Below, piece after piece: positions 4,182 to 38,724 of a stretch of 64,000 nt of DNA. Origin of the DNA: a virus. A model generated the notes under the pieces. That model worked only from the letters and a program-made list of their open reading frames with translations, ran no database searches and had not been told where the DNA came from. Where the stretch lies: IMG/VR virus record IMGVR_UViG_3300045120_000462. One strand, written 5' to 3'. The translations under genes were made by a program, and so were the position numbers. How positions within the stretch are numbered: the first letter of the stretch is position 1; each line of letters starts with the position of its first letter.

Positions 4182-4282
4182 GCTGGCGTGCACTGCACCT
4201 CGTAGCTGCAGGCTTGCTACTGCTCGTGCTCATCATCGTGGTGAGCATCCTCTACGACATCGTGCGTAGCTGGTTCGACTGA
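4178..4282 (+). CDS. small single-pass membrane peptide (34 aa)
   Basis: GTG 4178 overlaps stop 4179-4181 (GTGA); hydrophobic core LVAAGLLLLVLIIVVSILY; high GC3. Confidence 0.45.
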   Translation: MSWRALHLVAAGLLLLVLIIVVSILYDIVRSWFD

Positions 4283-4483
4283 GCGCTCGACGTCGAACGT
4301 CACTACGCACGCACCCAGCCTCTGAGCTTCGGACAGCCGGCGCCCACTACCCAATGCGGTGGTCAGCCCGCGCCCACGTAACCAACGCACCATCACCGAC
4401 CCCGCCTCCGATGCAGTGCAGTAGTCACCCAGCTCGTACTCGACGCCGCCAACGTGCACGCTGATGTAGTAACGCTCCTCCAT
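4217..4483 (-). CDS. possible hypothetical protein (weak call)
   Basis: Internal ATG 4483 of ORF 4217..4603(-); fairly high GC3 but no SD, and antisense overlap with 4178..4282. Confidence 0.3.
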   Translation of the reverse strand: MEERYYISVHVGGVEYELGDYCTASEAGSVMVRWLRGRGLTTALGSGRRLSEAQRLGACVVTFDVERSVEPATHDVVEDAHHDDEHEQ

Positions 4484-4878
4484 GTAGAGGAGGGTGATGG
4501 TGGTGGTAGGTAGTGCTCTCACACTCAGTACAAGGAACGCTGCGCACGTAAGTGTCAACGCAACACCGTGAACTGCGTGAACCCCGTGACGCCTAGGGCG
4601 CACAGGCGGCGCCCACTAACAGCTCCACCGTCTACGTGTACCACCACCACGTGTGTGTGCCGTAGCTCGTGCACGTACTGCGTGCTCGCGTAGTTAGTAG
4701 CTCACGCATGCATGAGTACAGCAGCACGTAGTAACTACGCGCAGCTCGACGCGGTAGCAAGCAGCTCACCAAGCTCCTTGCCGTGTACAGCAGCCGACCG
4801 GAGCGCTCCAACCGGCTCCGCCGCTTGGCCGCTCATACCGCCACACAGCTCCGCTTACGCTCGCTGCGAGTGCAACAG

Positions 4879-4913
4879 CTACTAACTGAGCGGCTGCGCC
4901 GCTGAGTTAGTAG
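4879..4913. other. stem-loop, 16-bp arms with one G.G mismatch, 3-nt loop
   Basis: CTACTAACTGAGCGGC tgc GCCGCTGAGTTAGTAG. Confidence 0.8.
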
Positions 4914-4924
4914 TAGCTCGGCGC

Positions 4925-4949
4925 TAGTTAGTAGCTCCGCTACTAACTA
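4925..4949. other. perfect 10-bp stem-loop
   Basis: TAGTTAGTAG ctccg CTACTAACTA. Confidence 0.85.
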
Positions 4950-4970
4950 ACGACGTACAACGACGTTGAA

Positions 4971-5008
4971 CAATAGAGACTAACGAGCTGCGCTCGTTAG
5001 CTCTATTG
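4971..5008. other. stem-loop, 17 bp with one bulged A
   Basis: CAATAGAGaCTAACGAGC tgc GCTCGTTAGCTCTATTG. Confidence 0.8.
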
Positions 5009-5028
5009 GAGTTACTGCGGCTCGCCGC

Positions 5029-5159
5029 AGCATAGGCTGTAGATGTGCAACGTCGTTGCACATCTGCTGGCGTGCACAGGCTCTGCAGAGGCTAGTACGC
5101 AGTACTAGGCTCCGCAGAGGTAGGGGTGCGGGGAGCATAGGCTCCGCAGGAGCATAGGC
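5029..5159. repeat. second short-repeat family: AGCATAGGC x3 and (T/C)AGGCTC(C/T)GCAG(A)GG x3
   Basis: AGCATAGGC at 5029, 5134, 5151; AGGCTCTGCAGAGG 5078-5091; TAGGCTCCGCAG at 5106 and 5138. Confidence 0.7.
5041..5065. other. perfect 12-bp-arm palindrome
   Basis: AGATGTGCAACG t CGTTGCACATCT. Confidence 0.85.
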
Positions 5160-5273
5160 CCCCCCACCCTTAAGCCGCCTGCGACGCAGGAGTCGGCGGC
5201 TGCACCCATGCGCTTCTCACAGCCACAACCCCATTACGCCATACCCCCAAGTACTGCAGTACCGTGCGTAGCG

Positions 5274-5336
5274 GCGACCCGGCCGCACCGAGGGTCAGAT
5301 CTCATCCATCTAGTCCGGTAAGTCGAGCCGGGTCGC
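5274..5336. other. long-range 10-bp inverted repeat enclosing 43 nt
   Basis: GCGACCCGGC (5274-5283) / GCCGGGTCGC (5327-5336). Confidence 0.7.
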
Positions 5337-5346
5337 TCACACAGAG

Positions 5347-5378
5347 TTGTGGAATCTCACATAGCTGTGTGGTACGTT
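5347..5378 (+). promoter_or_regulatory. candidate promoter for a leaderless transcript
   Basis: GAGTTGTGG (-35-like TTGTGG 5347-5352), TACGTT 5373-5378, then 7 nt to ATG 5386; no SD; the 20-nt spacer is long. Confidence 0.4.
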
Positions 5379-5385
5379 GTTGAAC

Positions 5386-5688
5386 ATGTACACGAACCAT
5401 GACACGCTCAACGTCCCCTGTCCGCAGTGCGAGGCCGAGGTCGGCAAGTGGTGCGTGCCGGCGCACAAGCGCTACAAGTACGACCCCCGTTACTACGTGC
5501 ACGGCAAGCGCCAGGTGGCGTTCGAGATCTACCTGACGGGCGTCAAGCAGGGCGCCGACAAGGTGGTGCGGCTGACGTTCTCCGACCCGAGCTACGGGAC
5601 CGATCCGACTCTTGTGAAGGACGTGCAGGCGGACATCAAGGCGGTGCTGCTCATCCTGCGCAAGTACGGGTCGGCGTCGGCGGCGTGA
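5386..5688 (+). CDS. zinc-finger protein (CPxCxAxxGxxC...H..R motif)
   Basis: Frame of ORF 5377..5688; ATG 5386; VPCPQCEAEVGKWCVPAHKRY..YYVHGKR. Confidence 0.65.
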   Translation: MYTNHDTLNVPCPQCEAEVGKWCVPAHKRYKYDPRYYVHGKRQVAFEIYLTGVKQGADKVVRLTFSDPSYGTDPTLVKDVQADIKAVLLILRKYGSASAA

Positions 5689-5812: not shown

Positions 5813-6013
5813 CTACTCCTCCCACCACCTGACCATCCACTTGCCGCCGATCAGCTCGGGGAAGAAGGTACGTGAGTGGAAGGTGAGCTTGGCGCCGACC
5901 GGGAGCGGCCCGTAGCAGTCCTCGTCGAGGAAGTTCAGCTCGAAGGCTGCTTTGCCGGCGACCTCGAACTCCACCCCGTCGAGTGGGCCACCTAACCACG
6001 TAACGAGCAACAC
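5813..6013 (-). CDS. hypothetical protein
   Basis: ORF 5813..6013(-); last gene of the leftward operon. Confidence 0.65.
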   Translation of the reverse strand: MLLVTWLGGPLDGVEFEVAGKAAFELNFLDEDCYGPLPVGAKLTFHSRTFFPELIGGKWMVRWWEE

Positions 6014-6022
6014 AGCGCCAAC

Positions 6023-6481
6023 CTAATCGTCGTAGCCCATCAGCTCTCGGTAGTTGAAGTTCTTGCCGAGCGCTTGGTAGATGTGCCACAGGGGGCCGGT
6101 GAGGTAGTGGCACTCGCCGTTGTAGACCATTGCGTACTTGGGGATGAACAGGCGCCCGAGGACGAACAGCCGGCCTTCACGGGTGAGGCGCCACATGCCG
6201 GTGCGTGAGGAACCGTCGTCGCGCACACCGGGCTGCTTCTCGATCAGTCCCCACAGGTGGGGCTTGACGTTGTCGCCGCCGCCCCTCTGCTGCCCGACGA
6301 TGCTGTTGTAGATCTTCGGGACGTCCATGTAACCGAAGGGATCCTTGCGGTACATCTGGATCAGCATGCGCGCTGGCACGTCGTAGATCGAGCGATCGTA
6401 GAGATGCACGAGCTGGTGGCAGCGTGGGCAGAACGTGTCCTGCGGTAGCTGGGTCGTGGGGACGATCCCGGTGAACTTCAC
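6023..6481 (-). CDS. hypothetical protein (N-terminal CPRC; possible winged-helix region)
   Basis: ORF 6023..6481(-); high GC3. Confidence 0.65.
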   Translation of the reverse strand: MKFTGIVPTTQLPQDTFCPRCHQLVHLYDRSIYDVPARMLIQMYRKDPFGYMDVPKIYNSIVGQQRGGGDNVKPHLWGLIEKQPGVRDDGSSRTGMWRLTREGRLFVLGRLFIPKYAMVYNGECHYLTGPLWHIYQALGKNFNYRELMGYDD

Positions 6482-6876
6482 GTACTGAGCTGCGTTGGGT
6501 GCTTCGTCGCTACGTGGCGGGCGACATCGACGAAGGAACGGTGGCAGTGCTGACAGACACCTCGATCCGCACGCTTGCGTGCCTTCGTCAGTTGGCCCTT
6601 GGTGGCGATGTGCGATGCACGCTCGGCGCGCACGTCCTCTTCTCGTGATGCGAGCTGGCGCGCCAGGCGCTCGGCGCGCTCACGCTCCTCGTCCAGCTTG
6701 CTCTTGCCGGTGTACTCCCAGGTGTGACCGAGCGGGCAGTACGTGTCGGTCTGGCGCTCGTTGTTGTCACGCTGGCGGAGCATGTGAGTGGCGATCTTCT
6801 CGGGGATGGCGTACGTCATGCCACACCAGCAGGTGACCACGGTCAGCTTGGTGGTGATCGTCATCGTGTCGCTCAT
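6478..6876 (-). CDS. hypothetical protein with Cys/His motifs and a coiled-coil segment
   Basis: Internal ATG 6876 of ORF 6478..6960(-) overlaps upstream stop 6873-6875 (ATGA); MSDTMTITTKL... Confidence 0.6.
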   Translation of the reverse strand: MSDTMTITTKLTVVTCWCGMTYAIPEKIATHMLRQRDNNERQTDTYCPLGHTWEYTGKSKLDEERERAERLARQLASREEDVRAERASHIATKGQLTKARKRADRGVCQHCHRSFVDVARHVATKHPTQLST

Positions 6877-8258: not shown

Positions 8259-8506
8259 GCCCTCGCCTTCCGGTAGCTGGTCAACGCCCCAAACAGGCCA
8301 CCCATGGCCCGCCAGAAGTCATCGCTCAGGTCGTTGCGCTCCTGCACGTCCTCGGCGTCCCATGCAGCCGTCGCTGTGGCGATCTTGGTGGCCAGGTCGT
8401 CGGCCAGCGCCCTCCCGGCCTCTAGGGCGTCAGCGGCCTCATCGAGCAGGTCGCCGTCAGGCACCGCACGCCGCAGGCTTGCGATGATCTCATCAGTCGT
8501 CGTCAT
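8255..8506 (-). CDS. hypothetical protein
   Basis: Internal ATG 8506 of ORF 8255..8593(-), preceded by AAGGACGAGGA; MTTTDEIIASL... Confidence 0.6.
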   Translation of the reverse strand: MTTTDEIIASLRRAVPDGDLLDEAADALEAGRALADDLATKIATATAAWDAEDVQERNDLSDDFWRAMGGLFGALTSYRKARA

Positions 8507-8606
8507 AGTCCTCGTCCTTGCTCTTGCCGCCCTGCTCCAACCACGCCCCGATCCCGAAGGCGGCGACGAGCAGAGCACCAACGATGAACACACCGATGCC
8601 GATCAC
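8493..8606 (-). CDS. 37-aa membrane peptide with acidic tail
   Basis: GTG 8606 overlaps upstream stop (GTGA); VIGIGVFIVGALLVAAFGIGAWLEQGGKSKDEDYDDD. Confidence 0.45.
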   Translation of the reverse strand: MIGIGVFIVGALLVAAFGIGAWLEQGGKSKDEDYDDD

Positions 8607-8884
8607 GACACCCACTCCACCACGCCCATCGACACCGCCAGGCGCAGCACGTAGCCGGCGTGGCGATCGTAGAAGCCTCTGCACACCGGCTCGACCGGCT
8701 CGCCTTGGTAGAGATGGTGGTGGCACACGATGCTGCCGGCCTCGTCGGCGGTGGCGCCGGCCACCATCTCGTCGCGGCGCTCGGCGCCGACCGGCGAGCG
8801 TGGCCCGAAGATGCACGTGTGGCACTGAGTGGCGCGGATGTGGACTCGTCCGTCCACGAAGACCTTGTGCCGGCGCCGGCTCAC
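8603..8884 (-). CDS. hypothetical Cys/His-rich protein
   Basis: ORF 8603..8884(-); CHTC...CHHH...C. Confidence 0.6.
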   Translation of the reverse strand: MSRRRHKVFVDGRVHIRATQCHTCIFGPRSPVGAERRDEMVAGATADEAGSIVCHHHLYQGEPVEPVCRGFYDRHAGYVLRLAVSMGVVEWVS

Positions 8885-9072
8885 TTCACGAGCTTCCGCA
8901 ACGACTCGACCAGCCGCATGCGCAGACCGATGATCTGCGTGTCGATCGCCTCGTACTGGCGCAGCAGCTCCCTGGTGACGCCGAGACGGTTCATCAACGT
9001 CATCAGGTCACGTCCCTCCCGTTCGAGGCGCGTCAGCTCGACACGCATGGAGGCCGAATCGAGCATCGTCAT
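8881..9072 (-). CDS. hypothetical coiled-coil protein
   Basis: ORF 8881..9072(-); ATGA coupling on both sides. Confidence 0.6.
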   Translation of the reverse strand: MTMLDSASMRVELTRLEREGRDLMTLMNRLGVTRELLRQYEAIDTQIIGLRMRLVESLRKLVK

Positions 9073-9497
9073 AGCGGTCGCACCTTTCCGATGTGGGTCC
9101 AGAACGTCTTGCCGGAGTGCCGGCGCAGCTCGATGTAGGCGGTGTGGCGCTGTGTCGGGCTGCCGGGGTCGTCATGCAGCTCACCGTCGACCACGAAGTA
9201 GGTGGTGTTCTTGGTGCCGGTCCACCGCACCTCCTGATTCGGCTGCAGGTTCTCCCAAAACGGCCAGTACGGCGACCGCGCCAGCGCTGCGCGCACCTCG
9301 ATCGACGGATCGGGGGTCGGCTCGGGCGGGTGGAGGCGCTTGTACTCGGCGTTGCACCACCAACGCAGGCGGTGAACGGTCTCGGGGTGGACGATCTCGC
9401 ACGTCTCGGCGGCGCCGAGGGCGAATCGGAACACGGCGATGACCTCGTCGACCTCGTTGTCGGTGCCATCGAGCGTCCACAGGTCGATTCCGGTCAT
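9069..9497 (-). CDS. hypothetical protein
   Basis: Internal ATG 9497 of ORF 9069..9812(-) overlaps upstream stop 9494-9496 (ATGA); MTGIDLWTLDG... Confidence 0.6.
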   Translation of the reverse strand: MTGIDLWTLDGTDNEVDEVIAVFRFALGAAETCEIVHPETVHRLRWWCNAEYKRLHPPEPTPDPSIEVRAALARSPYWPFWENLQPNQEVRWTGTKNTTYFVVDGELHDDPGSPTQRHTAYIELRRHSGKTFWTHIGKVRPL

Positions 9498-9841
9498 GTC
9501 CGCACCGGCTTGAAGCGGATGAACGACGTACCGTTGACGCAGAGCCAGATTCGGCCGTCCTGGGACACCTGAACGCCGACCTCGCACGACTGTTGATCCA
9601 TCGCGGCGACGATCGCGGCGTTCTCGATCGACAGATGGCCGTGTTGGTACACCGGGCCGTAGCCGGCGAGCGCCTTGGCGAGCTGTTCGACGTCCTGCGC
9701 CTCCCGAGTGGCCCTCGCCGCCTTCTTGCGACGTGCGACGTGGGTGAAACCGACCGACTTGCCGCCCTTCGAGCGGCACTGGTCGCCGCGGCGCGCCATG
9801 CAGTAGGGGCACGACACGCCGGCAGGCCCGATGAGGATCAT
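9494..9841 (-). CDS. zinc-finger protein (CPYCxARxGxxC...H..R motif)
   Basis: Internal ATG 9841 of ORF 9494..10207(-) overlaps upstream stop 9838-9840 (ATGA). Confidence 0.6.
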   Translation of the reverse strand: MILIGPAGVSCPYCMARRGDQCRSKGGKSVGFTHVARRKKAARATREAQDVEQLAKALAGYGPVYQHGHLSIENAAIVAAMDQQSCEVGVQVSQDGRIWLCVNGTSFIRFKPVRT

Positions 9842-10125
9842 TTCGGCGCCAACTTCCGGGCTGCGGCCTTCTTCACTGCCACTCGGGGCAGGGTCGGCTC
9901 GGGCAGGTTGGCCACGCCAACGATGATGATGCCGTAGTTGTGGTCTTTCGGCGCCGATTTCAGGTCGTTGGCCACCAGGAGCACCGCCGTGCGCAACCAC
10001 GAGTCGTCCTGTACCCCGCGGACGTCCATCGTGCTCCCGTCGGAGAGCAGGAAGCGGTAGGTCGTCCAGTGGTAGTCGACCTCGTAGCCCGTGGTGGTCG
10101 CCACGAGTCGAAGGATGTTGGTCAC
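9838..10125 (-). CDS. hypothetical protein, first gene of the leftward operon
   Basis: ORF 9838..10125(-); GTG start, no SD; TAGCCT lies 9 nt upstream on the minus strand. Confidence 0.6.
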   Translation of the reverse strand: MTNILRLVATTTGYEVDYHWTTYRFLLSDGSTMDVRGVQDDSWLRTAVLLVANDLKSAPKDHNYGIIIVGVANLPEPTLPRVAVKKAAARKLAPK

Positions 10126-10230
10126 AGTGCTGGGAGGCTACCAAACTTTCAACGATGTGTCCCACACGTTGACTCGTCACACTTTTGGTGGTTGAATGAC
10201 GCTCCACAACTCACCCAAGGAGTGTTCCAC
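10126..10230. promoter_or_regulatory. divergent intergenic control region
   Basis: Separates the leftward operon from rightward gene 10231; holds TTGACT(10169-10174)-17 nt-TTGAAT(10192-10197) for the + strand and TAGCCT (10135-10140, minus strand). Confidence 0.5.
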
Positions 10231-11082
10231 ATGCCATCACGTCAGTGGTCACTGATCGTGAGCGAGGCGGCGGTCATCGCCGACTCGTACACGACGCCAG
10301 TGACCCTCCGTCAGCTCCACTACCGGCTCGTCGCAGCCGGCACGGGGGGCTACGTCAACACGACGGCGTGCTACAAGCGCCTGTCGTCGTTGACGGCCGA
10401 GGCGCGCCGCGACGGCACGTTCCCGGCGCTGTCCGACCGTACCCGTGGTGTCCATCAGACGACGTCGTTCGCCGATCCGTCCGATGCGATCGAGTGGGTG
10501 ATCGACCGCTACTGGCGCAACCGCACCGAGGATCAGGACTACCAGATTTGGGTGCTGTACGAGAAGGCCACCCTCGGCGCTCAGATCGAGGATTGGGTTC
10601 GTCCGTACGGCCTGCCTTCCGCCGCCCTGCGCGGCTACAGCTCGGAGTCGTTGGAGCGCGAGGTGTTCGAGCAGATGGAGAACGAGCAGGAGGGCGAGCC
10701 GCGCCCGATCGTCGTGTTCTACCTCGGCGACCTCGACCCCGAGGGCGAGGACATCGAGCGCAACTTCGTCGCTCAGGCCGACCGCTGGGGGATCTCGTTC
10801 AAGCATTGGGAGCGCCTGACGGTGTTGCCGGCGCAGATCACCCCGCTCGGACTCGTCCCCAATCCGGGCAAGGCGACATCCAGCCGCGCCGCCGGCTTCG
10901 TGCGCAAGTACGGCGCCCTGTTCCAGATCGAGACCGAGGCCGTCGACCCCGCCACCCTGCGGACGCTGGTGATCAACGCCATCACCAGCAAGGCGTGGTT
11001 CAACAAGGCGCTGTGGACGGCGTCCAAGGATCAGGAGAAGACCGACACCGAGGCTCTCCGCCAGATCGCCAGCACGATCTGA
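10231..11082 (+). CDS. stand-alone Spo11/TopoVI-A-like protein (5Y-CAP + Toprim), 'Mini-A'-like
   Basis: AAGGAG SD 10218-10223; N-terminal TLRQLHYRLV (CAP Tyr motif); VLYEKATL (Toprim Glu); FYLGDLDPEGEDI (DxDPxGxxI Toprim motif). Confidence 0.6.
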   Translation: MPSRQWSLIVSEAAVIADSYTTPVTLRQLHYRLVAAGTGGYVNTTACYKRLSSLTAEARRDGTFPALSDRTRGVHQTTSFADPSDAIEWVIDRYWRNRTEDQDYQIWVLYEKATLGAQIEDWVRPYGLPSAALRGYSSESLEREVFEQMENEQEGEPRPIVVFYLGDLDPEGEDIERNFVAQADRWGISFKHWERLTVLPAQITPLGLVPNPGKATSSRAAGFVRKYGALFQIETEAVDPATLRTLVINAITSKAWFNKALWTASKDQEKTDTEALRQIASTI

Positions 11083-11213
11083 TGGATCTCGACGAGCTGG
11101 CGGAGTGGTTGGAGCGCCACCCGGAGATCGCCTCGATCACGATCACCGAGATCGTCGAGACGACCACTCCGCCGGCCGGTTCTCCACCCGAGTGGGGAAC
11201 CGACGAGTCGTGA
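11082..11213 (+). CDS. 43-aa acidic protein
   Basis: ATG 11082 overlaps stop by 1 nt (TGATG); MDLDELAEWLERHPEIASITITEIVE... Confidence 0.45.
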   Translation: MDLDELAEWLERHPEIASITITEIVETTTPPAGSPPEWGTDES

Positions 11214-11214
11214 T

Positions 11215-11242
11215 TTGACGTTGCGCAACATCGCTGTATTGT
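11215..11242 (+). promoter_or_regulatory. sigma70-like promoter driving a leaderless gene
   Basis: TTGACG 11215-11220, 16-nt spacer, TATTGT 11237-11242, 6 nt, ATG 11249. Confidence 0.55.
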
Positions 11243-11248
11243 GGTGCG

Positions 11249-11386
11249 ATGTTGTCGCAGGCGTCAGCCGACTCGAACACCATCGGGATGCTCGTGGTCG
11301 CCATTCTCGTGCTCGCCGGTCTGCTCATCGCAGACGTGGTCGCTGAGATCGTGCACATGCGTGAGCGACCCAAAGATCGCCACTGA
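11249..11386 (+). CDS. 45-aa single-pass membrane protein
   Basis: MLSQASADSNTIGMLVVAILVLAGLLIADVVAEIVHMRERPKDRH; below the ORF-track cutoff; followed by a terminator. Confidence 0.5.
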   Translation: MLSQASADSNTIGMLVVAILVLAGLLIADVVAEIVHMRERPKDRH

Positions 11387-11405
11387 TCGGCGGACAGTGG
11401 CCACC

Positions 11406-11449
11406 GGGAAGCCCCGTTCCTTCCAGGGGGGTAGGGACGGGGCTTCTCC
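11406..11449. terminator. stem-loop between convergent genes
   Basis: GAAGCCCCGT (11408-11417) / ACGGGGCTTC (11437-11446). Confidence 0.6.
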
Positions 11450-11452
11450 GCG

Positions 11453-11626
11453 TCACTCGTCGGGTTCGTCGGTCTCCTCGACCTCGAAGTACTCGGCCAG
11501 CTCAGCGTTGGCGGTCTCGACCGCTTCGGCGAGCGTTCCGATGATCACGAACGCACCCGAGGGGATCGCCCCCGAGTGCACGATGTGGCAATCGATGTGG
11601 GACTGGCTGAGATCGAGTCGGCTCAT
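11453..11626 (-). CDS. 57-aa acidic protein
   Basis: MSRLDLSQSHIDCHIVHSGAIPSG...EVEETDEPDE; high GC3; 16 nt downstream of the Thr-rich gene. Confidence 0.5.
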   Translation of the reverse strand: MSRLDLSQSHIDCHIVHSGAIPSGAFVIIGTLAEAVETANAELAEYFEVEETDEPDE

Positions 11627-11642
11627 GGTCGTTCAGTATTGC

Positions 11643-13355
11643 CTACACCGTCGGCGGCAGGAACGGCGGCAGGGTGATGGTCGTCGTCGGCCCTGGCGGG
11701 AACGGGCCGTTCGGGTTGGCGCAGGCGCTGCTCTCGGGCGGGTACGTCACTAGCACTGGCCCGGCCGTTGGGTTGACGGTGTACGTCAGGAAGATCCCCT
11801 GCCTCAGGAAGGCGTCGCTGGGATCCTGCACCCAAAAGCCGTCGCTGTTCAGGTTCCACCCCGGCACGTCAGCGATGGACCCGTCGGAGTTCACCACCGT
11901 GCCGGGGTAGAGGATGTCCACCGTAGCCCCAGGCTCGTAGACGAGCGACTGCACCGACACGACTTCGCCGGTCGCGGCGGCGGTCATGGTGAGGGTTCCC
12001 GTGCGCCCAGCGAGCGACGGGAACTGGTTCTGGAACTCGATGCGGATCGTAGGCACCTCGCGCACGCACACGGTGCCGGCGGCGCCGAACGTGAACGTGT
12101 CAGGGAGGGTTGTCGAGCTTGTAGTCGTCGAACCCGATGGGGAGGTCGTTGAGGTCGAGGACGGGCTGGTCGGCCCACTTGTCGTCGTCGTAGAACCGGG
12201 GATCGTCGTCGAAGACGTAGTCGTCGGGGTCGTAGTGGGCGTGCTCGTCGATGTCGTCGTCTCCTCTGGCGGGCAGTTCTCGGGCAGCGTCACGACGGCC
12301 GTGGCCGTCTCGCCCGAGTTGGCGTAGGTCAGGGTGAGCGGGGTCGTGAGGCTCGCAGGGTAGGGGAAGGTGACCGTCTGGCCCGACTGGAAGACCAGCG
12401 GGTTGTTGGAATAGTCGGTGCCGTCCGAGAAGGTCAGCAGGCCGGGGACGCCGTTGAGGTCGGGCCGGTTGCCGAAGGTGATCGAGATCTCGGGGAGGTT
12501 GTCGTCGCCGCAGAAGGCGAAGTCGTCAATACCCAGGAGACTCGGTCGAGGAATGGTCGTTGTAGTGGTCGACGGCGCGGTCGATGAGGTGGTCGAACTT
12601 GTCGTCGTAGATCCCGGGACGGTCGAGCTTGTCGTGGTCGTCTGCTGGGGCTGGGTAGTGGTCGTCGAGGTGCTCGTCGTCGTTGAGGAGGTCGTGGAGG
12701 TCGATGTCGTAGATGTGGACGTAGGCGGCACGGTGGAGGTGGTCGTGCTTGGCGCGGTGGTCGAACTGGTCGTGGTGCTTGACGATGTCGTGGTTGTACC
12801 ACCATCAGGGAGGCACTCAGACACGTCCGGTTCGGGCTGGCCGACGTCGAAGGCGATCACCTTGGAGCGGCCCTGAGCGTCGGCGAAGAACGAGCCGATC
12901 ACGCCGTCCCAATCGGGGATCGCATTGACGCTGACCGAGATCGGGTTCTGACCCGTCTGCAGCCGCTCGTCAACTCCCGGCGTCCCCACGAACTTGCAGA
13001 CGAAGACCTTCTTGCTCGGCTCCGTCGTAGTTGTCGAGGTCGAAGAGGTCGTACTCGTGGATGACGTCGTTGTGGATGTCGAGGTAGAAGTCGGAGTAGA
13101 GGACGTAGTGGTAGGTGCGACCGTCGTAGTGGTGCTCGTGGTGGGCACCGTCTGCGGGTTCGTCGTCACGATCGTCGTCGTGGTAGCGCCGGCCGTCGTC
13201 GTGGTGTACGACGGGTGTGTCGTCGAGGTGGCCTGATGGGTCGTGGTCGTGTACCCGTACCCCGTCGGGATCGCCCCGCTCCCCCACCCGGCAACCACCG
13301 GGGTGCCCACCAGGACACCGCCCACTATCAGGAGCGCCGCAACCCTTGACTTCAT
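11643..13355 (-). CDS. secreted Thr/Ser-rich (mucin-like) multi-domain protein
   Basis: ORF 11643..13367(-); ATG 13355 preceded by GGAGGG; signal-peptide-like MKSRVAALLIVGGVLVGTPVVAGW; long poly-T/S linkers between globular segments. Confidence 0.75.
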   Translation of the reverse strand: MKSRVAALLIVGGVLVGTPVVAGWGSGAIPTGYGYTTTTHQATSTTHPSYTTTTAGATTTTIVTTNPQTVPTTSTTTTVAPTTTSSTPTSTSTSTTTSSTSTTSSTSTTTTEPSKKVFVCKFVGTPGVDERLQTGQNPISVSVNAIPDWDGVIGSFFADAQGRSKVIAFDVGQPEPDVSECLPDGGTTTTSSSTTTSSTTAPSTTTSTVPPTSTSTTSTSTTSSTTTSTSTTTTQPQQTTTTSSTVPGSTTTSSTTSSTAPSTTTTTIPRPSLLGIDDFAFCGDDNLPEISITFGNRPDLNGVPGLLTFSDGTDYSNNPLVFQSGQTVTFPYPASLTTPLTLTYANSGETATAVVTLPENCPPEETTTSTSTPTTTPTTTSSTTIPGSTTTTSGPTSPSSTSTTSPSGSTTTSSTTLPDTFTFGAAGTVCVREVPTIRIEFQNQFPSLAGRTGTLTMTAAATGEVVSVQSLVYEPGATVDILYPGTVVNSDGSIADVPGWNLNSDGFWVQDPSDAFLRQGIFLTYTVNPTAGPVLVTYPPESSACANPNGPFPPGPTTTITLPPFLPPTV

Positions 13356-15411: not shown

Positions 15412-16998
15412 GTGACGGCCACTGTTCGCGAGATCGCCGAGGAACCGTATGAGGAGATCTACGACGATCCCGACGACGGCGAGGAGTTCATCGAGGTAGA
15501 TCCCGAGAGCGCCGAGTTCATCCATGAGCTGACCATGCGTTGCATGGTCTTCATGGAGGCGTTGTCCGAGATCGAGATGTACCCGTACCAGAAGGATCTC
15601 GCCTACCGCACGATCCAGTCGGTACTGCTCAACGACGGCGCCGAGATCACCGCCCTGTGGGCGCGCCAGTCGGGCAAGTCGACGGCGCTCGCCGCCATCA
15701 TCGCCACGCTGATGGTGCTGCTGCCCAAGCTGGCCGCTGCCTACCCCGATCAGTTCGGTCAGTTCAAGCGTGGCTTTTGGGTCGGCGTGTTCGCCCCCAC
15801 CGAGGAACAGGCGTACACGATCTGGTCGAAGATCTACGACATCCTGTCGTGCAAGCACGGCCGCGAGATCCTCTCCGACGAGGACATCGAGGACGTGCCG
15901 CAGAAGGAAGGCTCGAAGGTCAAGGTCGTCAAGCTCGTCAACAGCCAGTCGATCTGCCGCATGCAGACGGCCAACCCGAAGGCGCAGATCGAGTCGAAGA
16001 CGTACCACTTCGTACTCCTCGACGAGAGCCAGGACTGCGACTCGGAGAAGGCCAAGAAGTCGATCTTCCCGATGCTCGCCTCGACCAACGGCACCAAGGT
16101 GTTCACCGGCACCTGTTCAAGGAAGCGCAACTTCTTCTACGACGCCATCCAGGCCAACAAGCGTCGCGCCACCCGGCGCGGTGGCCGGCAGGATCACTTC
16201 CAGTACGACTGGAAGGTCGTCGTCAAGTTCAACAACTTCTACAAGAAGTACATCGCTGGTGAGAAGGAGCGCATCGGCGAGGACTCCGACGAGTTCCGCC
16301 TGAGCTACGCCTGCCAGTGGCTGCTCGAACAAGGAATGTTCGTGACCGAGGAGAGCTTCGACTTCCTCGGCGATCCCAACATGGACATCATCCCGTGGTT
16401 CGTGATCGACAAGTGCGTCGCCGGCATCGACCCGGCGCGCACGAAGGACTCGACCGTGGTGACGGTGATGTGGGTCGACTGGAACAACCCCGACCCGTAC
16501 GGGTACTGCCAGCACCGCATCCTCAACTGGTTGGAGATCCAGAACAAGCCGTGGGAAGAGCAGTACGCCCGCATCATCGACTTCCTCTCTCACTACAACG
16601 TGGCGATCATCGGCGTGGACGGTCAGGGTCTCGGTGGGCCGATCGCCGAGCGCCTCGCCCACGAGATGCCGTGGGTCGATGTGCGCTCGCTCGGGTCCAA
16701 CCCGGCCGACCAGGAGAAGCGGTGGAAGCGGTTGAAGGCGCTGATCGAGCGCCGGATGTTCATCTACCCGGCCAGCCGGCAGTGCAAGAAGCGCCGCTCC
16801 TACAAGCGCTTCCGTCTGCAGTTCGAGGAGTTGGAGACGATCTACAGCGGCAAGTTCATGCTCGCTGCGGCGCCCGAGGTCGTGAACAGCTACGACGACT
16901 ACTGCGACTCGTCCGCATTAGCGGTGGCGGTCACCGAGGATGAGGACTTCGGCGTGATCGCTCAGATCGACTCGCCGTTCCATGGTCGACGTCGGTAA
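15412..16998 (+). CDS. terL: terminase large subunit
   Basis: 528 aa; Walker A ARQSGKST; Walker B HFVLLDESQD; C-terminal nuclease-like GIDPARTKDSTVVTV. Confidence 0.9.
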   Translation: MTATVREIAEEPYEEIYDDPDDGEEFIEVDPESAEFIHELTMRCMVFMEALSEIEMYPYQKDLAYRTIQSVLLNDGAEITALWARQSGKSTALAAIIATLMVLLPKLAAAYPDQFGQFKRGFWVGVFAPTEEQAYTIWSKIYDILSCKHGREILSDEDIEDVPQKEGSKVKVVKLVNSQSICRMQTANPKAQIESKTYHFVLLDESQDCDSEKAKKSIFPMLASTNGTKVFTGTCSRKRNFFYDAIQANKRRATRRGGRQDHFQYDWKVVVKFNNFYKKYIAGEKERIGEDSDEFRLSYACQWLLEQGMFVTEESFDFLGDPNMDIIPWFVIDKCVAGIDPARTKDSTVVTVMWVDWNNPDPYGYCQHRILNWLEIQNKPWEEQYARIIDFLSHYNVAIIGVDGQGLGGPIAERLAHEMPWVDVRSLGSNPADQEKRWKRLKALIERRMFIYPASRQCKKRRSYKRFRLQFEELETIYSGKFMLAAAPEVVNSYDDYCDSSALAVAVTEDEDFGVIAQIDSPFHGRRR

Positions 16999-26546: not shown

Positions 26547-26857
26547 CTGCCACCGACCACCTCAACCGTGAGCTGTTCCACGCCACGACGCACCCGTTTC
26601 AAATCGGCGACGTGGTCAACCCCACCGACACCGAGCACAGCGAGACACCGATGGCGTTTGCCACGCCCGACTTGGGCCTCGCCAACTCGATCGCCCGTGG
26701 CAAGGCCCGCTGGCACAACAAGCGCAACCCTGATGACCAGAGGACCGGACACGTCTTCGCTGTCGAGCACATGAGTGAGCCGGCCGATCTGTGGATGCCG
26801 AGCAGGTACGTCGCAGACCCCGCTGGGTTCCGAGTCGTACGTAAGGTTGAGCAGTGA
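26543..26857 (+). CDS. Arr-like (rifampin ADP-ribosyltransferase fold) small protein
   Basis: ATG 26543 overlaps stop (ATGA); LFHATTHPFQIGDVVNP / MAFATPDLGLANSIA / GHVFAVEHMSEP / SRYVADPAGFRVVRKVE parallel the Arr blocks FYHGTKANLAIGDLL / IYFSAL..AVWGAELA / YIYIVEPTGPFE / SYRTCEPLRIVGVVE (Arr sequence recalled from memory). Confidence 0.55.
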   Translation: MTATDHLNRELFHATTHPFQIGDVVNPTDTEHSETPMAFATPDLGLANSIARGKARWHNKRNPDDQRTGHVFAVEHMSEPADLWMPSRYVADPAGFRVVRKVEQ

Positions 26858-28554
26858 GCGTTGCCTTCTGGCCCCCGAGCTACCGCGCCGGTACCTCCGA
26901 CCTCTCGATCCAGATCTCCCCTCTCGGGCTGGTCGACCTCTCCAACGAGGAGATGGACGTCCACGGGATCCGGCTGTCTCGGTACTCGCTGTATTGGGCG
27001 CACTACCTCGGCCACCACTGGGCGTACCGACGAGAGATCGGCGAGCCGCAGTTCACGTTCAACTACGTGCGCGCTCTGTCGGACTACCTCACCAACTTCA
27101 CCTTCGGCCGCGGCGTGACCTTCCAGTCGCCGCCGGCTACCTCGGCCATCATCCCGGCGATCTTGAAGCGGGTGTGGGAGCAGGACAACCGCAAGGCATC
27201 GATCCTGTGGGAGATGGGCCAGATCGCCTCGGTGACCGGTGACCTCTTCGTCAAGGTGGCGTACGAAGATCCCTTCGTCGACTCGGCGGGCCGGCTACAT
27301 CCTGGCCGTGTCCGCATCCTCCCTCTGAACCCGGCCAACTGCTTCCCACAGTGGCACGAGCACGACCGACAGCGGATGCTCTCGTTCAAGTTGAAGTACC
27401 GGTTCTTCTCGACCGACCAGACCGGCACCCGCATCGTCAACACGTACATCGAGCGGATCACCGACACGGGCATCGAGGAGTACGTCAACGACGAGCTGAT
27501 CTCGGCGCGGCCGAACCCGCTCGGCGTGATCCCGATCGTCTACGTCCCCAACATCCTGATCTCAGGATCGCCGTGGGGGATGAGCGACATCGCCGAGATC
27601 ATCCCGCTCAATCGCGAGTACAACGAGAAGGCCGTCGAGATCTCCGACATCGTCAACTACCACTCCGCTCCCGTCACGGTGATCACCGGGGCCAAGGTGC
27701 CGCAGTTGGAGAAGGGTGCGCGCAAGACGTGGTTCCTGCCCAAGGACGCCAAGGTCGAGACCCTGCAGTCCACGTGGCAGCTAGAGCACATGCTCGGCTA
27801 CATGGACGTCGTCAAACGAGGGATGCACGAGATGACCGGCGTGCCCGAGCAGGCGCTCGGTCAGGTGCAGCCGATCAGCAACACGAGCGGCGTGGCGCTG
27901 GCGATCCAGTACGCCCCGACGATGCAGCGCTTCCGCATGAAGAAGAACAACTTCGAGTCGGGCTTCCAGCAGATCAACGAGCTGGTGATCCTCACGCTGT
28001 TCCAGAAGGAACCGCAGTCGATGATGTTCAACCCCATGGAGGACACGGCGCCCAAGCCGGGCCAGCTCACACAGCTCGACCCCGCTGACCCCAACAGCTA
28101 CGAGACGTCGACCTACTGGCCCGAGCCGTTGCCGGTCGATATCCTCGTCAAGCTCAACGAGATCACGCAGAAGATGCAGCTCGGGTTGGAGTCCAAGCGC
28201 GGTGCGCTCGCCGACCTTGGTGAGGAGTTCCCCGACGACAAGCTCGCCGAGATCTTCGCCGAGATCCTCGAAGACGCCAAGGATCAGGGTGCGTTGCAGT
28301 TGCAGACCTCGGCGATCCAGGCGGCGATCGTCGCCCTCACCGGAATGGTCCCGGCTACTGGCGAGCCGGCCGACCCCGGTGGGGGCGGTGGCGATGGCCA
28401 GGGCGTCAACAAGCCCGATGCTGGTGGTACCGGCACAATGCCCGGTCTCGTGCTCGACCAGAACACGATGAACCTGATGAATGAGCTGACCACTCGTGCC
28501 TACATGCCGCGCATGGGACAGTTCCGTAACCCGGCCAACACCAGTAACGAGTAG
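26854..28554 (+). CDS. portal protein
   Basis: 566 aa; GTG overlaps stop (GTGA); LYWAHYLGHHW motif near the N-terminus, size, and position upstream of scaffold and capsid. Confidence 0.85.
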   Translation: MSVAFWPPSYRAGTSDLSIQISPLGLVDLSNEEMDVHGIRLSRYSLYWAHYLGHHWAYRREIGEPQFTFNYVRALSDYLTNFTFGRGVTFQSPPATSAIIPAILKRVWEQDNRKASILWEMGQIASVTGDLFVKVAYEDPFVDSAGRLHPGRVRILPLNPANCFPQWHEHDRQRMLSFKLKYRFFSTDQTGTRIVNTYIERITDTGIEEYVNDELISARPNPLGVIPIVYVPNILISGSPWGMSDIAEIIPLNREYNEKAVEISDIVNYHSAPVTVITGAKVPQLEKGARKTWFLPKDAKVETLQSTWQLEHMLGYMDVVKRGMHEMTGVPEQALGQVQPISNTSGVALAIQYAPTMQRFRMKKNNFESGFQQINELVILTLFQKEPQSMMFNPMEDTAPKPGQLTQLDPADPNSYETSTYWPEPLPVDILVKLNEITQKMQLGLESKRGALADLGEEFPDDKLAEIFAEILEDAKDQGALQLQTSAIQAAIVALTGMVPATGEPADPGGGGGDGQGVNKPDAGGTGTMPGLVLDQNTMNLMNELTTRAYMPRMGQFRNPANTSNE

Positions 28555-29575: not shown

Positions 29576-30703
29576 ATGCCCGATATCTCAGGTGGCATCT
29601 CGGGTACTGGCAACCTGTACTCGGGCGTGTCCGGTGGTTCCAACCCGGCTGCCGTGCCGGTTGGTGGTGCCTTCCTCGGTGTGCAAGCGCCGCCAGCGCC
29701 GTCTGGCCTCGTCACTCAGGGCTACCCGCAGGGCACTGCGATCACCGGCTCGACCTCGCTCACCCCGGCGATCCAGACGGTGTGGAGCCGGGAGATCCTC
29801 TTCCAGGCGATGCCCATTCTGCGCTTCGAGCAGTTCGCCGTGAAGAAGACCGAGCTGGGAGTCACTCCCGGTTTGACCATCAACTTCATGAAGTACAACA
29901 ACCTCGACGTGGACTCCGTCAACGGCGCAGCCCTCACCGAAGGTGTGCGCATGAGCACTCGGGCGCTGTCGGCGTTCCAGTACCGCATCCTCGTCGGCGA
30001 GCAGGGAACGGCCGTCGCCGTCTCCGAGCTGCTCCTCCACGCTTCGTTCGATGACGTGATGGCTTCGGCCTCGCGTCTGCTCGGGCGCCACATGGCGCAG
30101 AGCATGGACTACCAGGCCCGCAACACGCTGATGCTGGCGCCCGGGTCCGAGGTCTACGGGTACGACAAGGCGGCTCCCTACCAGGGCAGCTCGACCAACA
30201 TCTATGACCCCGGTACCAAGGCAGCCAGCGCTGCCGGCGTGACCGGCGCCGTCGCCGCCACCAACCGCTACCTGCTCACTCCTCATACCGTGAAGGACGC
30301 TGTGCAGGCGCTCGCCTCGCTCAACATCCCCCGGCTCGGCGAGACGTACGTGCAGTTCGTGCACCCGGCCCAGGCCCGTCGTCTTCGTGACACGCCCGAG
30401 TGGATCGAGGTGACCAAGTACGCCGCTCCCGGGAACTTCATGCTTGGCGAGATCGGCCGCATCAACGACGTCGTGTTCATCGAGACCACGCAGGTCAACT
30501 TCGCTGCGGCCGGCGCCGGCAACAACTACTACGACGGCCTGATGATCGGCGACAACGCCTTCGGGCACGCCGTGTCGCTCCCTGTCGAGCTGCGTGACGG
30601 CGGAGTCCTCGACTTCGGCCGGGAGCACGCCCTCGCCTGGTACGCCATTTGGGGTTGGGGTTCGATCACGCCGCAGGCCGTGGTCCGCACGCTCACCAAC
30701 TGA
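29576..30703 (+). CDS. major capsid protein (HK97-fold type)
   Basis: AAGGAG SD; 375 aa; position after scaffold; strong terminator downstream. Confidence 0.85.
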   Translation: MPDISGGISGTGNLYSGVSGGSNPAAVPVGGAFLGVQAPPAPSGLVTQGYPQGTAITGSTSLTPAIQTVWSREILFQAMPILRFEQFAVKKTELGVTPGLTINFMKYNNLDVDSVNGAALTEGVRMSTRALSAFQYRILVGEQGTAVAVSELLLHASFDDVMASASRLLGRHMAQSMDYQARNTLMLAPGSEVYGYDKAAPYQGSSTNIYDPGTKAASAAGVTGAVAATNRYLLTPHTVKDAVQALASLNIPRLGETYVQFVHPAQARRLRDTPEWIEVTKYAAPGNFMLGEIGRINDVVFIETTQVNFAAAGAGNNYYDGLMIGDNAFGHAVSLPVELRDGGVLDFGREHALAWYAIWGWGSITPQAVVRTLTN

Positions 30704-37107: not shown

Positions 37108-38724
37108 ATGCCCGCTGCAACAACCATCACCGACACCTACTTCCCCGGCGTCCACGTGGTCGAGCGCCCGTTCCAGCCGGGCATCGCCAGTACCGCTGAC
37201 GTCACTGCCTTCGGGGCGTTCATCGGCCAGTCGGCTCAGGGGCCGGGTGTGCCCACCGAGGTGCGCTCGTGGCCCGAGTTCACCCAGCAGTTCGGGACCA
37301 TCTACACCGACCTGCACAACGCTGTCTACGACTTCTTCACCAACGGTGGCCGGCGCGCCTTCGTGACGCGTCTCGCTGCGACCGGTGGGGCGCCGGCCTC
37401 ACTGGTCGTCTACGACTCGTTGGTCACCACGCCGCCCGGTCCTCCGGGGGCGCTGTTGTTCACGGTGACGGCGACCAACAACGGCACGTGGGGGAACAAC
37501 CTCAACGTCGTCTGCTACACCCGCGACGCCGTCAACTACCGCTTCGACGTGGCGGTGTACAGCGTGCCCACCGGGACGACGTTCGACGCCACCAAGCGCA
37601 ACAGTGAGTACCTCGTCGCTCAGTGGAACGACGTCTCGCTGTTCCCCAACGACGACCGCTACCTCTACACGGTGACCAACCCGCCGTCCTCGACGAGCAC
37701 GCCGCTGGTCACCTTCATCCCCGGCGTGACGTACAACCCGAACCTGCCGAACACCGCAGCCAACCGGCCGATGCCCGGCACGGCCGGTGGCACGGCGCTG
37801 ACCGGTGGGTCCGACGGCACGTACACGCTCCCGCTCGACACGCAGTACGCCAACGCCGTTGCGGGCATGGCTGCCATCCCCGGGCCGTACGTGCTCAACC
37901 TGTGCAACCAGACGAAGAAGGAGATCATCACGGCGGCGATCAACGACGCCTCGGCCCGTGGTGATGTCTTCGTCGTCTGCGATCCGCCGCTCGGCAAGAC
38001 CGTGGCCGAGATCGTGCAGTACGCACAGAGCGATCTCGGGCTGAACGTGTACAACAACAAGGCCGGCAGCTTCGCTGCGCTCTACTACCCGGCGGTGTGG
38101 ATGCCAGCGATCGGTTCGGCCGTGCCGGGGCGCACCGTGTTGCGCCCCGGTGGTGGTGCGATCGTCGGCCAGTACATGGCGACCGACGACTCGCAGGGTC
38201 CATGGCGTGCGCCGGCCGGGCGCAACTACTTGGTCGGCGGTGCGCTGCAGGTCGAGCGCTCACTGACCGAGGCCGAGCTGACGACGCTCAACAACTCCAA
38301 CGTCAACGCTCTGCGTGTGGTCACCGGGGCGGGTGTGTCGATCATGGGCGCCCGTACCTTGAAGAAGACCGGCGCCGACATGTACATCAACGTGCGGCGC
38401 ACGATCATGGAGGTCACCCGCAGCCTGACATTGGCCACCGAGGTGTCGCTGTTCGACAACAACGACGAGCGGTTGTGGGAGCGCCTCGAAGGCACCTGCG
38501 AGGACTACCTCGGCAACATCTACGCACAGGGCGGGTTGAAGGGTGGCTCCCCCACCGATGCGTTCTACGTCCGCTGCGACGGCACCAACAACACCCCGAA
38601 CACCATCGCTCAGGGCGTGGTCAACATCGAGGTCGGCATCGCTCTGCTCACCCCGGCCGAGTTCATCATCATCACCATCGGACAGTTCGAGAGCGGCACG
38701 GTCGCCACGGCTGTGAACATCTGA
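37108..38724 (+). CDS. tail sheath protein
   Basis: 538 aa; N-terminal TYFPGVHVVERP.., C-terminal NALRVVTGAGVSIMGARTL; followed by the tube gene. Confidence 0.9.
   Translation: MPAATTITDTYFPGVHVVERPFQPGIASTADVTAFGAFIGQSAQGPGVPTEVRSWPEFTQQFGTIYTDLHNAVYDFFTNGGRRAFVTRLAATGGAPASLVVYDSLVTTPPGPPGALLFTVTATNNGTWGNNLNVVCYTRDAVNYRFDVAVYSVPTGTTFDATKRNSEYLVAQWNDVSLFPNDDRYLYTVTNPPSSTSTPLVTFIPGVTYNPNLPNTAANRPMPGTAGGTALTGGSDGTYTLPLDTQYANAVAGMAAIPGPYVLNLCNQTKKEIITAAINDASARGDVFVVCDPPLGKTVAEIVQYAQSDLGLNVYNNKAGSFAALYYPAVWMPAIGSAVPGRTVLRPGGGAIVGQYMATDDSQGPWRAPAGRNYLVGGALQVERSLTEAELTTLNNSNVNALRVVTGAGVSIMGARTLKKTGADMYINVRRTIMEVTRSLTLATEVSLFDNNDERLWERLEGTCEDYLGNIYAQGGLKGGSPTDAFYVRCDGTNNTPNTIAQGVVNIEVGIALLTPAEFIIITIGQFESGTVATAVNI

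Follow-up and report, generated by a model that had tools for sequence, protein, structure and literature searches.

What might a phage do with a relative of topoisomerase VI subunit A (Top6A) and Spo11 that it carries without any B subunit? This question is raised by a gene at positions 10231-11082 of a 64,000-nt stretch of viral DNA (IMG/VR virus record IMGVR_UViG_3300045120_000462), the whole of which is called the window here. Its 283-residue product belongs to the Mini-A family, which has been described before, and carries the invariant cleavage set of type IIB enzymes (Arg/Tyr, the Toprim Glu, the DxD pair and the Glu of the T2BI box). No ATPase partner accompanies the gene, and across the family the gene resides preferentially in replication and recombination modules. 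With moderate confidence, and by analogy, we suggest that the protein is an ATP-independent, Tyr- and Mg2+-dependent DNA breakage-rejoining enzyme that acts on phage DNA in replication or recombination.

The Mini-A gene and its catalytic motifs

The gene, its ribosome-binding site and the four motifs on which the argument turns are as follows:

10231..11082, + strand: Mini-A gene, 283 amino acids (ATG at 10231, TGA at 11080-11082)
10217-10222: AAGGAG, Shine-Dalgarno sequence of the Mini-A gene, 8 nt before the ATG
10303..10332, + strand: TLRQLHYRLV, residues 25-34, with the putative catalytic Tyr31 and, four residues before it, Arg27 (RxxHY)
10552..10575, + strand: VLYEKATL, residues 108-115, with the Toprim Glu111 (and Lys112) at the end of a predicted strand, 105-110
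10717..10755, + strand: FYLGDLDPEGEDI, residues 163-175, the Toprim DxDxxG metal-binding motif (Asp167, Asp169 and Gly172)
10921..10944, + strand: FQIETEAV, the counterpart of the T2BI box, which retains Glu234 and Ala237 but has Ile in place of Trp

The open reading frame (ORF) and the first three of these motifs, already picked out in a first-pass annotation of the window, can be read directly from the sequence, and the gene is conserved well beyond chance; its nearest homologue shows 76% identity (E-value 5e-134). The G+C content at third codon positions (GC3) is 0.90, in a window with an overall G+C of 65%. The product is a stand-alone Top6A/Spo11-like protein in which a short 5Y-CAP-like N-terminal domain is followed by a Toprim domain. 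TLRQLHYRLV falls inside a predicted helix (26-36) and aligns with TLRE(A/M)YY of Top6A, while Glu111 of VLYEKATL aligns with the Glu of IETGG/IETSG. The third motif, FYLGDLDPEGEDI, directly follows a predicted strand (160-165) and aligns with DGDPW/DGDPYG of Top6A.

Membership of the Mini-A family

The window protein matches PHROG 6247, 'DNA topoisomerase', with an E-value of 3e-34. A tblastn search matched 73 GenBank phages at 25-32% identity, including Chi-like Salmonella phages, Pseudomonas phages NP1 and PaMx25, Xylella phages Sano and Salvo, and phages of Microbacterium and Curtobacterium. The 300-residue protein of Pseudomonas phage NP1 (KX129925.1; tblastn E-value 2e-19, 31% identity, 85% of the query) also belongs to PHROG 6247, and NP1 is one of the two phage/bacterial sources in the Mini-A alignment figure of Takahashi et al. 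2020 (PMC7671362). We equated the NP1 ORF with the Mini-A of that paper by its SWELDAL signature; the published SWELDAL and RQLYYQL signatures are present in the proteins of NP1, Sano, SPN19, Wilca and Commonplace.

In the published description, a Mini-A has about 300 residues, a Toprim Glu and DxDxxG motif, a C-terminal T2BI box (xWELDAL), a viral or proviral location and no B subunit (PMC7671362). The window protein agrees with this family in size (about 280-300 residues), in a catalytic Tyr near the N-terminus with the first half of the Top6A 5Y-CAP domain missing, in the Toprim Glu and DxDxxG, in a C-terminal E..A box, and in being encoded by a virus or provirus without a B subunit. It differs at two places. 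In RQLHY, a His precedes the Tyr, as opposed to the Tyr or Phe of the Rxx(Y/F)Y context of Mini-A, and the literal xWELDAL signature is absent, its place being taken by F-Q-I-E-T-E-A-V; here the Trp is lost, and in the subtype to which the window protein belongs the acidic position is E or D and the Trp is replaced by I or V. Taken together, the PHROG 6247 assignment, the NP1 match, the invariant Tyr, Glu and DxD residues and the lack of a GHKL partner bear out the first-pass proposal of a stand-alone, Mini-A-type relative of TopoVI-A/Spo11 without a B subunit.

The family is large and widespread. Searched against 1.84 billion representative proteins, a profile returned 10,980 clusters (50% identity) at E<=1e-3 and 1,970 at E<=1e-30, with members in phages of Actinobacteria, Proteobacteria and Bacteroidota as well as in archaeal viruses. 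Its GenBank labels vary between hypothetical protein, DNA topoisomerase and DNA binding protein. In NP1, a 63-amino-acid ORF at 8422-8613 is labelled 'putative DNA topoisomerase', and the real Mini-A gene, at 5884-6786, is labelled 'hypothetical protein'.

Conservation of the catalytic residues and two subtypes

Are the putative catalytic residues kept throughout this family? An alignment of 319 sequences (228 from protein databases, 85 from IMG/VR loci and 6 from annotated phages) gave the following counts:

Arg27: 314 of 319
Tyr31: 315 of 319
Glu111: 319 of 319
Lys112: 317 of 319
Asp167: 319 of 319
Asp169: 319 of 319
Gly172: 319 of 319
Glu234: 314 of 319
Ala237: 312 of 319

Where Arg27 or Tyr31 is missing, the sequence mostly has a gap or comes from a truncated ORF. 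The Tyr and DxD residues, on whose conservation the first-pass annotation had staked its reading, are therefore essentially invariant. These counts bear on the idea that the protein merely binds DNA without catalysis. Its homologues in Wilca, Fizzles and Nonagon (Microbacterium/Curtobacterium phages) are annotated 'DNA binding protein', and there is no report of an enzymatic activity in the family; but the set of Tyr, Arg, Glu, DxD and T2BI Glu is invariant across about 25-76% identity, which is the signature of selection on catalysis, and we consider a non-catalytic role highly improbable.

The residue before Tyr31 is more variable, with H in 108, F in 105 and Y in 9 sequences of the protein-database set, and Y in 66, H in 15 and F in 9 of the viral set. 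Two subtypes can be told apart by it. The first combines Y-Y at the Tyr helix with an S/C-W-E-L-D-A-L box; the second, which includes the window protein, combines [H/F]-Y with Q-[V/I]-E-x-[E/D]-A. The second subtype accounts for 21 of the 85 scored IMG/VR loci and for almost all of the nearest metagenomic relatives. Within these 85 loci, residues 30 and 233 covary: W-type boxes go with Tyr in 59 of 61 cases, and Q[VI]-type boxes with His or Phe in 21 of 21. In Top6A, the T2BI box touches the Tyr helix (PMC7671362). The covariation fits such a contact as a hint, the clades being not independent and the pattern confounded by phylogeny.

Comparison with Top6A and Spo11

Topo VI A and Spo11 (PF04406 plus PF21180; structures 1D3Y, 2ZBK, 2Q2E and 8URQ) present their catalytic elements in the same order as the window protein, namely R-x-x-aromatic-Y, the Toprim Glu, an [RK]G[YQ]P-like motif, DxDxxG and a C-terminal Glu box. 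In contrast, the window protein is about 100 residues shorter and has no B-binding N-terminal segment, and the GHKL B subunit found with those enzymes (Top6B/Top6BL) has no counterpart near the window gene. The sequence similarity is weak (E-values of 0.003-0.06). Topo VIII, a plasmid-borne type IIB enzyme, likewise occurs only in mobile elements and likewise joins a truncated 5Y-CAP domain to a Toprim domain, but it comes with a GHKL/transducer B moiety, either fused or adjacent, and has an RVELNAM box and an Arg at the third position after the Tyr. The window protein has none of these features.

A search of PDB sequences with the single protein or with a narrow profile (A1) returned nothing, whereas a 60-sequence Mini-A profile run against 177,635 PDB sequences had Top6A of M. 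jannaschii (1D3Y) as its best match, at an E-value of 0.06. This match aligned the Toprim region, and a second, sub-threshold stretch paired TLREAYY with TLRqlfY. Among the Pfam models, PF21180 (TOP6A-Spo11 Toprim) gave a sub-threshold E-value of 0.009 in the NP1 and SPN19 proteins; the window protein matched neither PF21180 nor PF04406 (TP6A_N) above threshold. For profile-profile comparison, a Top6A set was assembled in two steps: the PDB was probed with a yeast Spo11 sequence, which 8URQ confirmed, and a segment of M. mazei Top6A then gathered homologues, all of which carry PF04406/PF21180. Aligned with hhalign, the narrow Mini-A profile reached an E-value of 0.075 (29 Top6A sequences, probability below 1%), and broader Mini-A profiles reached 0.0026-0.006 (probability 6-11%). 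The best alignment comprised 203 collinear columns that paired R..Y, the Toprim Glu, RGYxS with KGQPA, and DxD; query residue 9 was paired with column 93 of the Top6A profile.

Structure prediction was also applied. The full-length AlphaFold2 model has a predicted local distance difference test score (pLDDT) of 93.5 and a predicted template modelling score of 0.88, and a model of the Toprim half (residues 96-258) has a pLDDT of 95.1. Both models show the Toprim order, in which strand 105-110 leads into E111 (strand 1) and strand 160-165 into D167xD169 (strand 3). With the Toprim-only model, Foldseek retrieved the Toprim domains of RecR, T7 primase and Topo II (E-values of 0.007-0.12), the top natural match being the RecR Toprim domain (probability 1.0, template modelling (TM) score 0.48, E-value 0.007). 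The full model, searched against the PDB, returned only Rossmann-like noise (TM score about 0.2, best E-value 0.018). A Toprim fold for the window protein is thus supported by the predicted structures. Kinship with Top6A appears consistent with the comparisons made here, weak as their statistics are; the published analysis and the collinear catalytic motifs lend it further support.

Resemblance to JetD-type nucleases

The Toprim domain also resembles that of JetD. PF09664 (DUF2399, the C-terminal Toprim domain of JetD) was matched by 8 of 45 close homologues, 2 of these 8 scoring above the gathering score; the two, P0113 and P0116, are 44%-identical relatives. Among the 5,027 PADLOC models, only JetD models were matched, by 7 of the 8 family members tested (E-values of 2e-5 to 0.06), and the window protein itself matched the JetD3 model over residues 153-182 with an E-value of 0.022.

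These JetD-type Toprim models are the only significant Pfam or PADLOC links of the family, and they raise the question of whether the protein could be a hydrolytic nuclease like JetD or MksG, which would cut without a covalent tyrosine intermediate and serve, for example, in the degradation of host DNA or the processing of ends for packaging. The nuclease activity of MksG depends on cations but not on ATP, and its Toprim domain is like that of Topo VI; it has no tyrosine, however, at the position equivalent to that of 5Y-CAP (PMC10123090). We regard this reading as quite unlikely, since the retention of Arg27 and Tyr31 in 314-315 of 319 sequences would be hard to explain without a catalytic role. 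The wider comparison shows the same mixture of likeness and difference. The Toprim subtype and the ATP-independent action of the protein itself are shared with JetD/MksG (PF09664; PMC10123090), whereas those proteins have a long N-terminal arm (DUF3322/DUF2220), a jetABCD/mksBEFG operon and no 5Y-CAP catalytic tyrosine, and the window protein has a short N-terminal domain, the invariant Tyr and no SMC-like neighbours.

Partner search and gene neighbourhoods

Does the gene have an ATPase partner after all? A 68,376-bp Logan contig carries identical sequence and extends 26 kb left of the window start, and the search covered the called genes of loci L001, L095 and L097. In two stretches of called genes, one beginning some 8.5 kb left of the window start and ending at window position 20.8 kb, the other beginning at about 52 kb and running past the window's right end, no GHKL/Bergerat Pfam match was found; the leftmost 17.7 kb or so of the 68-kb contig and some ORFs at about 20.8-52 kb lay outside the scan. 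The ORFs that were scanned between 20.8 and 52 kb are structural genes. The first-pass statement that no GHKL partner lies nearby agrees with this outcome.

Neighbouring genes were then compared across the family, by clustering the ORFs within 4.5 kb of Mini-A in 92 loci (80 IMG/VR loci found with the family profile and 12 others). No neighbour is conserved, the top neighbour family occurring in only 7 of the 92 loci. The recurrent neighbours are an SNF2-like helicase immediately 3' of Mini-A (7 loci), a DnaB-like helicase nearby (7 loci), a family-A DNA polymerase immediately 5' (6 loci) and an SF2 helicase nearby (5 loci), followed by a DNA polymerase exonuclease subunit, ParB-methyltransferase fusions, a ligase and a RecB-like exonuclease; in NP1, a Sak4-like annealase adjoins the gene. 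The contexts vary even among the closest relatives. One relative with 67% identity has DnaB, a DnaG-type primase and a separate O-like initiation protein within 6 kb, and in other relatives the gene lies in temperate elements with tyrosine integrases.

A hidden 'Mini-B' was considered as well, in the form of the RecA-like/Sak4 ATPase whose translation is coupled to that of Mini-A in NP1 and in a Micromonospora element, and was rejected. Same-strand adjacent genes carried a Walker A motif in 3 of 126 cases, against 36 of 612 in the background. Because Walker-A neighbours are at or below background, Mini-A is truly stand-alone.

The Micromonospora element is integrated in Micromonospora sp. U21 (L006; JAGPYK010000007.1, 6489-12468) and encodes a 44%-identical Mini-A. 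Its genes run in the order serine recombinase, two small genes, a 405-residue P-loop protein, Mini-A and small terminase subunit; the P-loop protein, which is RecA/DnaB-like by weak matches, overlaps the Mini-A start, and an FtsK/SpoIIIE gene comes next on the opposite strand. On two JGI contigs (L011 and L012; P0004, 67% identical), Mini-A stands just 3' of TerL and 5' of the portal gene, inside the packaging module, a placement unlike that in the window.

How far do these neighbourhoods favour one role over another? A replication initiator would nick one strand at an origin, remain bound by Tyr31 to the 5' end and start rolling-circle replication, much as an HUH endonuclease does. This role has been proposed for skuldviruses of Asgard archaea (bioRxiv 10.1101/2021.07.29.453957) and was restated in 2026. 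Tyr/Mg2+ chemistry would suit a covalent 5' attachment, and a repeat-rich, gene-poor stretch that is a possible origin lies 5 kb left of the window gene. Nevertheless, we hold this role to be unlikely. The 67%-identical relative has its separate O-like initiator, DnaB and DnaG-type primase within 6 kb, many Mini-A phages have a polymerase and helicases of their own, and the family is found in phages with very different replication modules; moreover, Top6A-type enzymes are dimers that cut both strands.

For a nuclease that processes ends for packaging, the TerL or TerS gene that adjoins Mini-A in three relatives of the clade would be a natural setting, but no terminase family recurs in the 92 loci, and the gene is also present in temperate elements with integrases. 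The packaging link was rejected on the first of these counts. An anti-defence role, in which the protein would be a decoy or antagonist of Toprim/SMC systems (Wadjet JetABCD/MksBEFG) or of others, with the two small proteins encoded downstream as accessories, appears very unlikely. It draws on the likeness of the Toprim domain to that of JetD and on the position of the gene in this phage, among small orphan genes in a region that looks early. On the other side, a decoy could do without a complete and invariant catalytic set, the neighbourhoods elsewhere are replication modules and not anti-defence islands, the small ORFs are absent from 94 other loci, and the protein lacks the N-terminal arm of JetD, its matches being confined to the Toprim part. 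Both packaging and anti-defence had been put forward in the first-pass annotation, and the gene neighbourhoods give them little or no support.

A proposed mechanism and its weight

Breakage and rejoining of phage DNA, the reading we favour, could proceed as follows. By analogy with Top6A-type enzymes, which are dimers acting on both strands, we infer that Mini-A would dimerise on duplex DNA, where Tyr31, positioned with Arg27, would attack the phosphodiester backbone of both strands, with Mg2+ bound by the Toprim residues Glu111, Asp167 and Asp169. The product would be a covalent 5'-phosphotyrosyl break with a 2-nt stagger, and the C-terminal Q-I-E-T-E-A box may pack on the Tyr helix and gate the reaction. 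Since there is no ATPase clamp, gated strand passage would not take place, leaving only ATP-independent breakage and possibly resealing. Breaks made or resealed in this way could feed recombination-dependent or concatemer-forming replication; alternatively, the enzyme might unlink daughter molecules without ATP.

A more specific form of this mechanism would be a viral 'Spo11 without a partner', which we put forward as speculative and rather improbable. In this form, an ATP-independent dimer would make programmed, covalently capped double-strand breaks in phage DNA that start recombination-dependent replication. The breaks would be resected and then used by phage annealases or recombinases, and an autoinhibitory latch would be formed by the covarying pair of the T2BI box and the residue before Tyr31.

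Several observations weigh against the breakage-rejoining reading and the Top6A kinship on which it draws. The window protein matches no Pfam model even at E<=1 and no NCBIfam model, and the profile-profile probabilities are low (1-11%). Foldseek found no confident BFVD match for the full model, and Top6A, Spo11 and JetD were outside its top 50 for both models; of the HHpred and Foldseek comparisons proposed earlier, the profile comparisons with Top6A and JetD were weakly positive, and the structural retrieval of Top6A, Spo11 or JetD did not succeed. In the window, the gene sits among small genes without assigned function and has no recognisable replication module around it, and in three relatives of the same clade it adjoins a terminase gene (TerL or TerS). 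Finally, the literature up to 2026 gives no biochemical or genetic characterisation of any Mini-A, so that the earlier remark that the function of these proteins is not established still applies.

Mini-A is the sole branch of the type IIB topoisomerases and Spo11 without an ATPase partner. Its function would show how many phages handle DNA breaks, and it bears on whether the ancestor of Topo VI and Spo11 was a stand-alone viral enzyme; 'Spo11 without a partner', if true, would be an analogue of meiotic break formation in viruses of prokaryotes, and possibly its ancestor. The present locus adds a well-conserved actinophage-type subfamily with an altered pair of Tyr helix and T2BI box, a natural variant for structure-function work. 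What is new here is modest, namely the family size, the two covarying subtypes, the absence of any partner conserved across 92 loci and the link with replication modules. The locus alone changes nothing known, and the question of function concerns the family as a whole.

Flanks of the Mini-A gene

The features on either side of the gene are as follows:

10126..10230: 105-bp spacer between the gene at 9838-10125 (- strand) and the Mini-A gene, which are divergent
11082..11213, + strand: 43-amino-acid acidic ORF, an orphan, whose start overlaps the Mini-A stop (TGATG)
11215..11242, + strand: sigma-70-like promoter, TTGACG-16-TATTGT, the sole scan match in 9700-11800 (0.1 expected)
11249..11386, + strand: 45-amino-acid ORF, an orphan, with one predicted transmembrane helix (residues 14-32)
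11408..11446: hairpin whose 17-nt arms, 88% complementary, enclose a 5-nt loop, separating the Mini-A unit from two convergent genes on the - strand

The first-pass annotation had placed the gene at a divergent promoter. The divergent arrangement with the gene at 9838-10125 is real, but the promoter is at most putative: the spacer holds a weak candidate spotted by eye (TTGACT at 10169-10174 and, after 17 nt, TTGAAT at 10192-10197), and the promoter scan accepted no site in these 105 bp. Two genes from the divergent junction, the small protein encoded at 9494-9841 (- strand) matches PF24623 (Phage_zn_bind_8), as does another at 5377-5688 (+ strand).

Downstream, the 43-residue protein has an isoelectric point of 4.05, with 11 Asp/Glu against 1 Lys/Arg, and a GC3 of 0.84; the 45-residue protein has a mean Kyte-Doolittle value of 2.85 over residues 14-32 and a GC3 of 0.78. 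Both ORFs were called as genes on Logan contigs with the same sequence. They are coding-like and particular to this phage: a tblastn search of 97 loci (1.14 Mb), three of which are this phage's own contigs, found no homologue in the 94 Mini-A loci of other origin. The co-occurrence of the two ORFs with Mini-A, which had been proposed as a check in other phages, was rejected, all matches falling in the phage's own three loci. Of the 'short operon' described earlier, the two coding-like ORFs downstream remain, but not conservation in any other locus. The description of the last gene as a membrane protein with its own promoter agrees with its predicted hydrophobic helix and with the single sigma-70-type match at 11215-11242. 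This promoter-like site ends 6 nt before the ATG at 11249, and the 45-residue gene would therefore have a leaderless transcript.

The hairpin at 11408-11446 is probably a bidirectional terminator without a T-run; a terminator scan that required a T tract did not list it. Beyond it, and convergent to the Mini-A unit, an ORF at 11643-13355 (- strand) encodes 570 residues, mostly Thr/Ser/Pro-rich runs with a hydrophobic N-terminal segment. It lies between the early-looking genes and the packaging operon, and no PHROG match and no Pfam match are on record for it.

The phage genome

The type of the phage can be read from the following genes:

15412-16998: 528-amino-acid gene with a weak Terminase_6C Pfam match
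26854-28554: portal gene
29576-30703: major head gene
37108-38724: tail sheath gene

Genes for a tail tube and a baseplate hub are also present in the window, and together with the portal, head and sheath genes they identify a contractile-tailed phage (myovirus). With the 26-kb extension on the left added to the 64-kb window, the genome must be at least about 90 kb, at a G+C content of 65%; relatives with a 64-67% identical Mini-A are on contigs of 105-123 kb. Megablast of positions 9000-13000 against GenBank phages gave no match, and scans of the window for tRNAs and Rfam families were empty.

About 5 kb left of Mini-A, positions 4182-5376 form a gene-poor stretch of about 1.2 kb, with a G+C of 0.60-0.61 and dense short repeats. 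The sequence TAGTTAGTAGC occurs there four times, in both orientations (at 4691, 4878, 4925 and 4939), and nowhere else in the 64 kb, where 0.08 occurrences would be expected. The stretch also contains hairpins at 4879-4913 and 5041-5065 and GGAGCATAGGC(T/C)CC repeats at 5106-5162, and it may be an origin or an operator cluster.

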